Both the position numbers and the translations under genes were made by a program. 64,000 nt of DNA from positions 114,247-178,246 of the forward strand of contig CAXXQD010000010.1 in the NCBI GenBank assembly GCA_963677475.2. The letters run 5' to 3'. The notes under the pieces are model-generated. The model was not told the DNA's origin and did not search any database. It was given only the letters and a program-made list of their open reading frames with translations. This stretch comes from Prolixibacteraceae bacterium (GTDB lineage: Bacteria; Bacteroidota; Bacteroidia; Bacteroidales; Prolixibacteraceae). Below are positions 47,981-48,570 of the stretch, in pieces (within the stretch, counting starts at the first letter, position 1; each line of letters opens with the position of its first letter).

Positions 47981-48173
47981 AAAAAAAAATGCTTGCCCTC
48001 GTACTGTAAACATATCTTCTGAAAATTGAAATTACCGGGGTAGGGTTTGGGCAAAAAAAAAACCCATGCGAAAGCATGTTCGGCAGTTTTTTTTGTTCAA
48101 ATTCACTTTACCCGTACCCGGTAATTGCAATTTTTGGTCATTCGTGCGCTAGTACGTGGGCAAAGCTTTTTTG
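47981..48173. repeat. Long imperfect inverted repeat (roughly 190-nt hairpin) in phage non-coding DNA
   Basis: Paired blocks: aaaaaatgcttgccctcgtact with agtacgtgggcaaagctttttt; aaaattgaaattaccggggtagggt with acccgtacccggtaattgcaatttt; apex catgc-gaaa-gcatg. Confidence 0.85.
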
Positions 48174-48570
48174 TCGTGCCTTGCACGTTTGATGAAATAG
48201 GTTATATTTGTTCTAGGGATTAGTACGGTGGTTGTCCCTATAACATACCACCACATGTGCCATAATGGCACTAGAGAAACGTTCTTTTTAACTTTGAATT
48301 ACTTAGCTAAGTAATTGTAATTTATACGATTATAAAGGCTCTAAACTCATGGGATTGGTGAAAAAAAGTTTTTGTAAAAAAAGCATTATTTATACAATCT
48401 TGGAAATATTGTAACAAGCTGACATATAGGGGTTTAGGAGAATAGCGGTATTTTTGGTACTGATTGGGGTTTTGCCCTAATTTTTAAAGGATTCCCTTTA
48501 ATTAAAAGCTTCAATTTAAAGAAATTAGCACAGAAATTTTTTAAGTACCTGATAGGCAGTAAATTAACTT

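Follow-up and report, generated by a model that had tools for sequence, protein, structure and literature searches.

What does a 188-nt imperfect hairpin do in the non-coding DNA of an integrated virus of Bacteroidota? The hairpin lies in a 64,000-nt stretch of a Prolixibacteraceae bacterium genome (NCBI GenBank assembly GCA_963677475.2, contig CAXXQD010000010.1, forward strand, positions 114,247 to 178,246), which we call the window and in whose numbering coordinates are given unless another locus is named. Our results indicate that the region around the hairpin (47985-48271) is very probably the rolling-circle replication origin region of an integrated relative of FLiP, a single-stranded DNA (ssDNA) phage. 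The right-hand part of this region (48227-48271) forms two small hairpins which, judging from their covariation in relatives, are likely the plus-strand origin, with the nick in a TATAACATAC loop. For the 188-nt hairpin itself, we give a function as single-strand (minus-strand) origin an even chance. A sequence-only reading of this DNA had previously interpreted it as the counterpart of the intergenic region of Ff phages. This interpretation, which our analysis supports in part, appears right in substance, with Ff as an apt model, and the firm evidence attaches to the small hairpins.

The element that contains the hairpin occupies window positions 36143-48600 (12.4 kb), and two of its proteins establish its kinship with FLiP directly. 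Its Rep protein shares 33% identity over residues 1-288 with the replication initiation protein of FLiP and FLiP-2 (tblastn, E 4e-34), and its capsid protein aligns over the full length (310-330 aa) with the FLiP-2 major capsid protein at 28% identity (E 2e-24). Most of 82 Rep homologues contain PF05144 (Phage_CRI), the N-terminal domain of the Ff gene II protein. Four of the six closest Rep sequences also contain it (best E 1e-8), and it is through these homologues, 40-46% identical to the window Rep, that the likeness to the gene II family is seen. Sequence profile searches found no solved structures for Rep. The FLiP-type Rep and capsid protein, PF05144 in the closest Rep sequences, the element's own single-strand DNA-binding protein (SSB) and a head-to-tail metagenome copy together argue that the element very probably has an ssDNA, rolling-circle lifestyle, in agreement with the sequence-only reading, which had assigned the hairpin to the non-coding DNA of such an element. 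FLiP homology, the Rep family and the phage-encoded SSB likewise suggest that single-stranded DNA would be found in the virion.

The limits of the element and the junction of its ends are equally direct observations. An exact 30-bp dif-like repeat, ACATATCCTATTTATCATAATATCAATTAT, bounds the provirus on both sides, and a metagenome contig (L002; ENA ERZ21831251) holds a head-to-tail copy of the element, 97-98% identical and with a period of 12,379 bp, in which window position 48593 is joined to 36143. These features fit a small circular genome, although the contig might instead derive from a tandem prophage array. Similar sites (TCTATTTAACATAATATAAATTATAGGA) lie beside related proviruses in several Bacteroidota classes. 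Pfam and PHROG scans of the provirus-encoded proteins revealed no integrase, and at ~49-53 kb, near the provirus, cumulative GC skew reaches its maximum and the genes change orientation. The exact dif-like repeat, the absence of an integrase and this turning point of skew and orientation together suggest that host Xer recombinases integrated the element at the chromosomal dif site, a route that has been proposed for integrase-free PhiCjT23-like and FLiP-like prophages (PMC9719478).

With no integrase encoded, a dif-like site near the GC-skew turning point and Xer-dependent integration proposed for its relatives, the large hairpin could also be an attP of the CTX phage kind, a folded single strand on which XerC/XerD act to integrate the ssDNA genome at dif. 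The L002 junction, however, places attP at 48571-48600, 400 nt from the hairpin. Moreover, the attP core is of the ordinary duplex type, common to both prophage ends, and the hairpin arms bear no similarity to the dif-like core. The position of the junction thus largely refutes a CTX-type folded attP, which we regard as very improbable. Four independent contigs of the closest relatives (L003, L004, L069 and L070) start ~175-180 nt upstream of their homologue of a 185-aa open reading frame (ORF), and the start of one of them (L069) is a dif-like site; the coexistence of integrated and free forms probably makes assemblies break at the att site.

The strongest evidence for an origin comes from the two small hairpins, which in the window read GGTGGTtgtcccTATAACATACCACCacatGTGCCATAATGGCAC. 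The decamer TATAACATAC (48239-48248) is invariant in the family and always occupies the loop of a stem whose own sequence differs; such a loop in a covarying stem occurs in FLiP and in ~25 proviruses and contigs. The intergenic region between ORF06 and ORF07 of FLiP-2 contains GGTTAGTGTgagccTATAACATACACTAACtaCTGCCACGTGTGGCAC. A covariance model built from five other elements, with the window excluded, finds window positions 48223-48275 (E 0.0077) as well as six further untrained sites and twelve more in metagenome loci. In the alignment of this nick module, 91.5% of cells are paired and changes on both sides occur in 10 of the 11 pairs: helix 1 is paired throughout (100%) with both-side changes in all five pairs, and helix 2 shows them in five of six. 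The covariation score was reached by none of 500 shuffles, and in slid controls pairing fell to 25-48%.

Both the ggtggt...accacc and the gtgcca-taa-tggcac hairpins noticed in the sequence-only reading are therefore present and supported by covariation in relatives. A third small hairpin listed there, aggga...tccct (48215-19 / 48235-39), does exist, but it crosses the supported nick hairpin and lacks comparative support, and is probably due to chance. Nicking would take place in the TATAACATAC loop, and the palindrome GTGCCA-TAA-TGGCAC is, by analogy, the probable binding site of Rep. In two relatives the nick module lies on the minus strand (L025, 11893-11942; L027, 11589-11645), and in these as well as in L082, L086, L087 and L089 it is found just downstream of Rep on the opposite strand; in this subgroup the strand displaced would thus be the one antisense to Rep, which differs from the situation in FLiP and the window. 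From IMG/VR, a complete viral contig (L068; 11,703 nt) encodes a Rep 28% identical to that of the window, an M15 endolysin and proteins with weak capsid-protein matches, and contains no TATAACATAC module.

The arrangement of the region resembles that of the Ff phages (M13, f1, fd), whose intergenic region comprises the packaging hairpin A, the minus-strand origin hairpins B and C and the plus-strand origin hairpins D and E. The Ff minus-strand origin is placed in the intergenic DNA 5' of hairpin D, and the loop of this hairpin in M13 contains the site nicked by the gene II protein. In M13, the nick hairpin GAGTCCAC-gttctttaata-GTGGACTC is followed after two bases by TGTTCCA-AAC-TGGAACA, and the window has the same two-hairpin layout. 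The order of the large hairpin, the nick hairpin, A/T-rich DNA and the replication genes also mirrors the Ff intergenic region. With the covariance model of the nick module, however, the M13 origin obtains no more than 4.3 bits (E 9.8), which is not significant, so that the likeness to M13 is only architectural, together with a loose GTNCCA..TGGNAC resemblance. The proposed equivalence with the Ff region is supported by the Rep family, the D/E-like layout of the module and the order of elements, but it does not extend to a significant sequence match with M13. Further differences are evident: a single 188-nt hairpin in the window stands against three (A, B and C) in Ff, no mimic of a host-polymerase promoter was detected in the window hairpin, and the region additionally contains a dif-like attP and divergent promoters. 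The virus is, moreover, icosahedral, FLiP-like and from Bacteroidota, whereas Ff is filamentous.

The region 47981-48275 has the sequence that the sequence-only reading described, and the large hairpin within it (47985-48172) has an ssDNA fold far more stable than that of shuffled sequences (z ~ -7). Its basal stem pairs AAAAA.TGCTTGCCC.TCGTACT with AGTACG.TGGGCAAAGC.TTTTT. The middle stem (48022-48046 / 48110-48134) spans 25 nt at 84% complementarity, and a stem of an A-run and a T-run (48046-48060 / 48087-48101) is 87% complementary. The apex is a mini-hairpin with a GAAA loop that is present on the + strand only; it contains GCGAAAGC, which we take to be among the unusually stable DNA mini-hairpins of Hirao and colleagues. 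Folded as ssDNA, the surrounding 306 nt reach -62.1 kcal/mol on the + strand (z -7.1; none of 100 shuffles was as good) and -57.6 kcal/mol on the - strand (z -7.2). The 188 nt alone reach -43.6 (z -7.2) and -38.9 kcal/mol (z -5.8), respectively, each compared with 300 shuffles.

This structure is rare. Since global folds of 1.6-kb regions were uninformative, 200-nt sliding folds were used instead, and in these the hairpin is the single outlier of the whole provirus (z ~ -5); among 20,986 windows of 200 nt from 67 related loci, just five attain -44 kcal/mol. As to position, 55 nt separate its 3' end from the nick hairpin, which is on the same strand. On the circular map it lies inside a ~0.9-kb non-coding region, bounded by the leftward ORF 47760-47957 on one side and by the rightward ORF 36435-36992 on the other. 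Furthermore, the hairpin region is under sequence constraint: 334 nt (47940-48273) show no substitution relative to L002 and differ by a single base in an A-run, compared with ~22 substitutions in the next 290 nt of non-coding DNA after 48273. A like local constraint is seen between FLiP and FLiP-2, which differ at four positions in their 486-nt intergenic region, compared with a genome-wide identity of 96.7% (PMC13269007).

The reading of the hairpin as a minus-strand origin builds on its Ff-like position, its being the sole extreme structure, the better fold of the + strand, the GAAA apex of that strand and the sequence constraint. Rolling-circle plasmids commonly carry a single-strand origin just 5' of the nick, and the window hairpin resembles such origins as an imperfect palindrome of 188 nt in the non-coding DNA of a rolling-circle replicon and, as proposed here, through its action on the displaced strand only. 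Single-strand origins also vary between related replicons while Rep and the plus-strand origin stay conserved, a pattern that recurs across FLiP-like elements. In plasmids the position of these origins is variable, and ssoA, one of their types, is an imperfect palindrome of ~150-200 nt needed for lagging-strand priming (PMC5703833). The host of the window element, in contrast, belongs to Bacteroidota and the replicon is a virus, and the staphylococcal palA, whose query sequence was confirmed in 2,128 plasmids, shows no similarity to the window hairpin. The hairpin may represent an undescribed type of single-strand origin of Bacteroidota ssDNA phages, read by a Bacteroidota priming enzyme, a tentative proposal that we rate at somewhat below even.

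Several observations weigh against an origin function of the hairpin. Two conserved ssoA motifs are RSB (TTATGCCGAGAAAATTT) and CS-6 (TAGCGT/A in the terminal loop) (PMC4598088); RSB is absent from 47985-48172, and no TAGCG occurs anywhere in the hairpin, whose apex loop is GAAA, so that CS-6 is lacking too and membership in ssoA was rejected. Neither strand of the hairpin contains a mimic of the Bacteroidota promoter (-33 TTTG / -7 TAnnTTTG) that would point to a priming enzyme; a sigma-70 scan of the hairpin likewise gave no excess of sites over shuffles. The strand preference is modest, as both strands fold well, and the window Rep itself stays below the Pfam threshold, with no direct Pfam match. 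The only alignable homologue of the hairpin that was found, in the ~98% identical L002, has no substitution and hence no compensatory change. One relative with a Rep 45% and a capsid protein 60% identical to those of the window (L003) has TATAACATAC and only a small branched hairpin 5' of it, and in the majority of distant relatives the DNA on the 5' side of the nick hairpin is coding and the stronger structure is often on the 3' side. Finally, 27 nt separate the hairpin base from the start codon (ATG) of ORF 47760-47957, which runs leftward, and a T-run comes after the stem on either strand (T9 on the - strand, T6 on the + strand).

The last two points would suit a function in RNA, with the hairpin as a 5' leader, attenuator or terminator for the leftward small-ORF module, or as a bidirectional terminator that insulates the divergent modules. 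Its distance from the ATG implies that a leftward promoter would lie inside or beyond the hairpin, its apex forms a weak terminator-like hairpin followed by T10 on the - strand, and its folds with RNA parameters are extreme (-74.3 kcal/mol on the + and -61.3 on the - strand). The hairpin is, however, far longer than usual terminators, its more stable strand is the + strand and not that of the leftward gene, and the sole good promoter match nearby points away from it. FLiP, moreover, has no leftward genes, yet possesses a strong structure 5' of its nick hairpin. No Rfam 15 family matched at gathering score in 47700-48700, and at relaxed E-values only generic plant miRNA-precursor models appeared, far below threshold (34 bits vs 100). 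We therefore consider an RNA role unlikely.

Comparison with relatives could draw on few close sequences. A genome scan with the window Rep gave no closer relatives: the Rep protein search yielded one 99% copy, followed by proteins of at most 46% identity, and a metagenome scan for closer Rep sequences reached 35% identity at best. Contigs of relatives with 36-46% Rep identity end at the att site or lack the hairpin region, and IMG/VR, scanned for exact patterns of the apex of the large hairpin and of the nick hairpin, gave no matches. Relatives whose Rep is at most 45% identical contain no homologous hairpin, and some have analogous ones. In 5 of 26 elements (expected 0.85), the 200-nt window that folds most stably in the entire locus is found no more than 450 nt from the nick hairpin on its 5' side, a test that is lenient because non-coding DNA is generally more structured. 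These five are the window, FLiP, L025 with a 110-nt hairpin ~30 nt upstream of the nick hairpin, L017 with a branched hairpin of ~170 nt, and L093, which is a short contig.

A different large hairpin, a rod of ~150 nt, is common to Rep-carrying integrated elements of Prolixibacteraceae, Sunxiuqinia and Mangrovibacterium (L006 ~15140-15290, L007 ~18290-18440, L009 ~21140-21290, L015 ~16000-16150 and L016 ~6990-7140), and its core also occurs in L047 (~8790-8900). Among its 53 predicted pairs, 14 show compensatory changes in five sequences, and it had no Rfam match. Its apex, ACGGAATAAA-TAGCGT-AGCGG-TTTATGCCGT, contains the CS-6 motif and the first 8 bases of RSB (TTATGCCG). Both conserved motifs of the Gram-positive ssoA are thus matched, although their arrangement is different, and the rod hairpin may, from its sequence, be an ssoA-like single-strand origin in Bacteroidota. 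The rod hairpin with its ssoA-like motifs suggests that elements of this Rep family usually have large hairpins of an origin type and that these pass between lineages, much as single-strand origin cassettes are exchanged among plasmids. The window hairpin is not of the rod type. Near the ends of five elements (L006, L009, L015, L013 and L012), (T)TGACACCAC / AACACCA motifs occur ~11 nt apart (TTAACACCAGATTTGACACCAC), downstream of the large hairpins (e.g. L009 ~21330-21350 and L012 ~19310-19370); they could be Rep iterons or recombinase arm sites. No TATAACATAC nick motif was found in these five elements.

Short repeats link the large hairpin with the nick hairpin. The sequence-only reading had reported the motif TAGTACG(T/G)GG twice; two copies are indeed present, starting at 48150 and 48221, but their tails are offset by one base and the repeat is statistically weak. 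The pattern TAGTACGKNGG matches at these two places only in 64 kb (expected 0.11), which is weak evidence, as the pattern was derived from the data and the repeat is short. The 48150 copy pairs with an inverted one, CCCTCGTACT (47996-48005), in the opposite arm, and TAGTACGGTGG is possibly a Rep-binding element. The large hairpin could therefore assist the plus-strand origin as an inverted repeat that forms a cruciform, with repeats for Rep binding (AGTACG..GGG) in its basal arms that would aid Rep assembly, origin melting or termination. The placement of the copies in both basal arms and next to the nick hairpin would fit such a function, and there is precedent in the pT181-family rolling-circle origins, which use inverted repeats extruded as cruciforms (PMC5775427). 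On the other hand, the repeat was defined post hoc, and a 9-base repeat within ~300 nt is not rare by chance. Relatives have no such repeats flanking the nick hairpin, and most family members lack a large inverted repeat beside the nick site, so that such a repeat is not needed for nicking. An accessory function thus appears improbable.

Instead of, or besides, serving as an origin, the hairpin might be a packaging (encapsidation) signal like Ff hairpin A, which would mark the + strand for the membrane-containing icosahedral capsid. What is seen here, one large hairpin with strand bias and sequence constraint in the intergenic DNA of an ssDNA virus, would be suited to this purpose, and the M13 intergenic region starts with a long imperfect palindrome (5490-5580) that is known from the Ff literature as the packaging signal. 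The hairpin, however, is not conserved family-wide although the capsid proteins are. As the element has one large hairpin only, either the origin or the packaging signal would have to do without a structure of its own, and a location right beside the nick, on its 5' side, is more specifically that expected of a minus-strand origin. We consider packaging quite unlikely as the function of this hairpin.

With the large hairpin as minus-strand origin, replication of the element might proceed as follows. Rep, a relative of the Ff gene II protein, would bind the GTGCCA-TAA-TGGCAC palindrome, and perhaps also the adjacent TAGTACG repeat, and nick the + strand in the TATAACATAC loop of the first hairpin. 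Synthesis from the nick would displace the old + strand rightward round the circle, and since it starts at the nick and runs rightward, the large hairpin immediately 5' of the nick would be displaced last. The phage SSB would coat the free + strand, leaving the hairpin alone as a duplex, on which host RNA polymerase or primase could make the primer for the complementary strand, both after infection and during multiplication of the double-stranded replicative form. Nicking in this loop, priming at the large hairpin and the choice of strand for packaging are inferred parts of the scheme.

The element resembles FLiP and FLiP-2 (Finnlakeviridae) in its homologous Rep, in its major capsid protein and in having a strong structure 5' of the nick hairpin. 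It also has in common with these phages the TATAACATAC nick hairpin and the hairpin after it, which in them lie between ORF06 and ORF07; its large hairpin, by contrast, is not homologous in sequence to the FLiP intergenic hairpins. The papers on FLiP and PhiCjT23 that we consulted do not mention an origin, nick site or hairpin, and replication is only presumed there to be of the rolling-circle type. With PhiCjT23-like prophages the element has integrase-free integration at a dif-like site in common (PMC9719478). At 12.4 kb it is larger than FLiP (9.2 kb) and the PhiCjT23-like prophages (6-8.4 kb), and it differs from both in that Rep precedes the capsid gene. It also has a module of small leftward ORFs and encodes an SSB of its own, a protein of 1,219 aa and an M15 endolysin, and its relatives hint at a host of the Marinilabiliales type.

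The features of the provirus and its origin region are compiled in the table below. To the left of the provirus lie the host genes gyrA (32351-34846) and a TPR protein gene (34929-36101), followed by a low-GC block of mainly rightward genes with small leftward ORFs at its far end, up to 47957. The product of the first rightward ORF has tblastn matches of 35-40% identity in L003, L069, L070 and L012 and no Pfam or PHROG match. Several ORFs of unknown function, among them that for the 1,219-aa protein, separate the capsid gene from the endolysin gene, with which a holin-like ORF is listed ahead of the leftward small ORFs. The leftward module is probably a lysogeny or regulatory module; its first product, which has no family match, is identical in L002. 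Where the rightward and leftward modules converge, in the spacer that separates them, a 44-nt unit is perfectly repeated in tandem 2.2 times (46686-46782), and the L002 alignment breaks and overlaps there, which suggests copy-number variation between the two strains. The promoter box at 48203-48210 lies outside the large hairpin, between it and the nick hairpin, and a promoter there would start rightward transcription just before the nick hairpin and through the origin. The palindrome at 48297-48316 is a candidate operator for a dimeric regulator. In the host DNA, two cobalamin riboswitches (Rfam RF00174; 105 and 89 bits) precede large plus-strand ORFs at 11449-11652 and 17130-17336.

Table. 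Coordinates of provirus and origin-region features in the window.
Feature	Position	Strand	Basis or remark
attL, 30-bp dif-like direct repeat ACATATCCTATTTATCATAATATCAATTAT	36143..36172	.	exact repeat of 48571-48600
185-aa ORF of unknown function, first rightward gene	36435..36992	+	conserved ahead of SSB and Rep in closest relatives
Phage single-strand DNA-binding protein (SSB)	36996..37313	+	Pfam SSB E 2e-12; phrog_44
Rep, rolling-circle replication initiator	37577..39313	+	phrog_702 replication protein; related to FLiP Rep and Ff gene II family
Major capsid protein homologue, FLiP type	39593..40585	+	28% identity to FLiP-2 major capsid protein
Peptidase M15 endolysin	45783..46268	+	Pfam Peptidase_M15_3 E 8e-17; phrog_894 endolysin
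65-aa ORF, first gene of leftward small-ORF module	47760..47957	-	ORF list; start codon 27 nt from hairpin base
188-nt imperfect hairpin, candidate single-strand (minus-strand) origin	47985..48172	+	ssDNA folds, inverted repeats
Apex mini-hairpin CATGC-GAAA-GCATG, contains GCGAAAGC, flanked by A10 and T8 runs	48065..48078	+	sequence
Repeat copy TAGTACGTGGG	48150..48160	+	3' basal arm of large hairpin
Bacteroidota-type -7 promoter box TATATTTG, perfect	48203..48210	+	motif scan, consensus match only; CTTG 19 nt upstream
Repeat copy TAGTACGGTGG	48221..48231	+	abuts/overlaps 5' arm of nick hairpin
Nick-site hairpin, proposed plus-strand origin (dso)	48227..48252	+	stem GGTGGT/ACCACC; loop with TATAACATAC
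Second origin hairpin GTGCCA-TAA-TGGCAC	48257..48271	+	helix 2 covariation; M13 hairpin E counterpart
Perfect 20-bp palindrome AATTACTTAGCTAAGTAATT	48297..48316	.	inverted repeat, A/T-rich DNA between origin and attP
attR, second copy of 30-bp dif-like repeat	48571..48600	.	exact repeat; L002 junction

No ssDNA viruses other than FLiP-like phages are known to combine a double jelly-roll capsid with an internal membrane. As a rolling-circle plus-strand origin accompanied by a single-strand origin is already well known, our results fill in a known picture and do not introduce a new principle. The comparison gives FLiP-like phages a first concrete and testable origin, a TATAACATAC nick hairpin with a second palindrome in an M13-like arrangement, and the provirus adds a candidate minus-strand origin beside this nick module. 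Rep nicking, strand polarity and complementary-strand priming thereby become testable in FLiP, which is culturable. The TATAACATAC module can furthermore serve as a sequence tag when genomes are searched for such elements, and it supplies parts from which ssDNA-producing vectors for Bacteroidota could be built. If the large hairpin is indeed a new type of single-strand origin, it would, together with the TATAACATAC double hairpin, give FLiP-like phages a first defined replication origin, with the plus-strand layout of Ff. A replication module of the gene II type, origin included, would then be common to filamentous and to membrane-containing icosahedral ssDNA phages.

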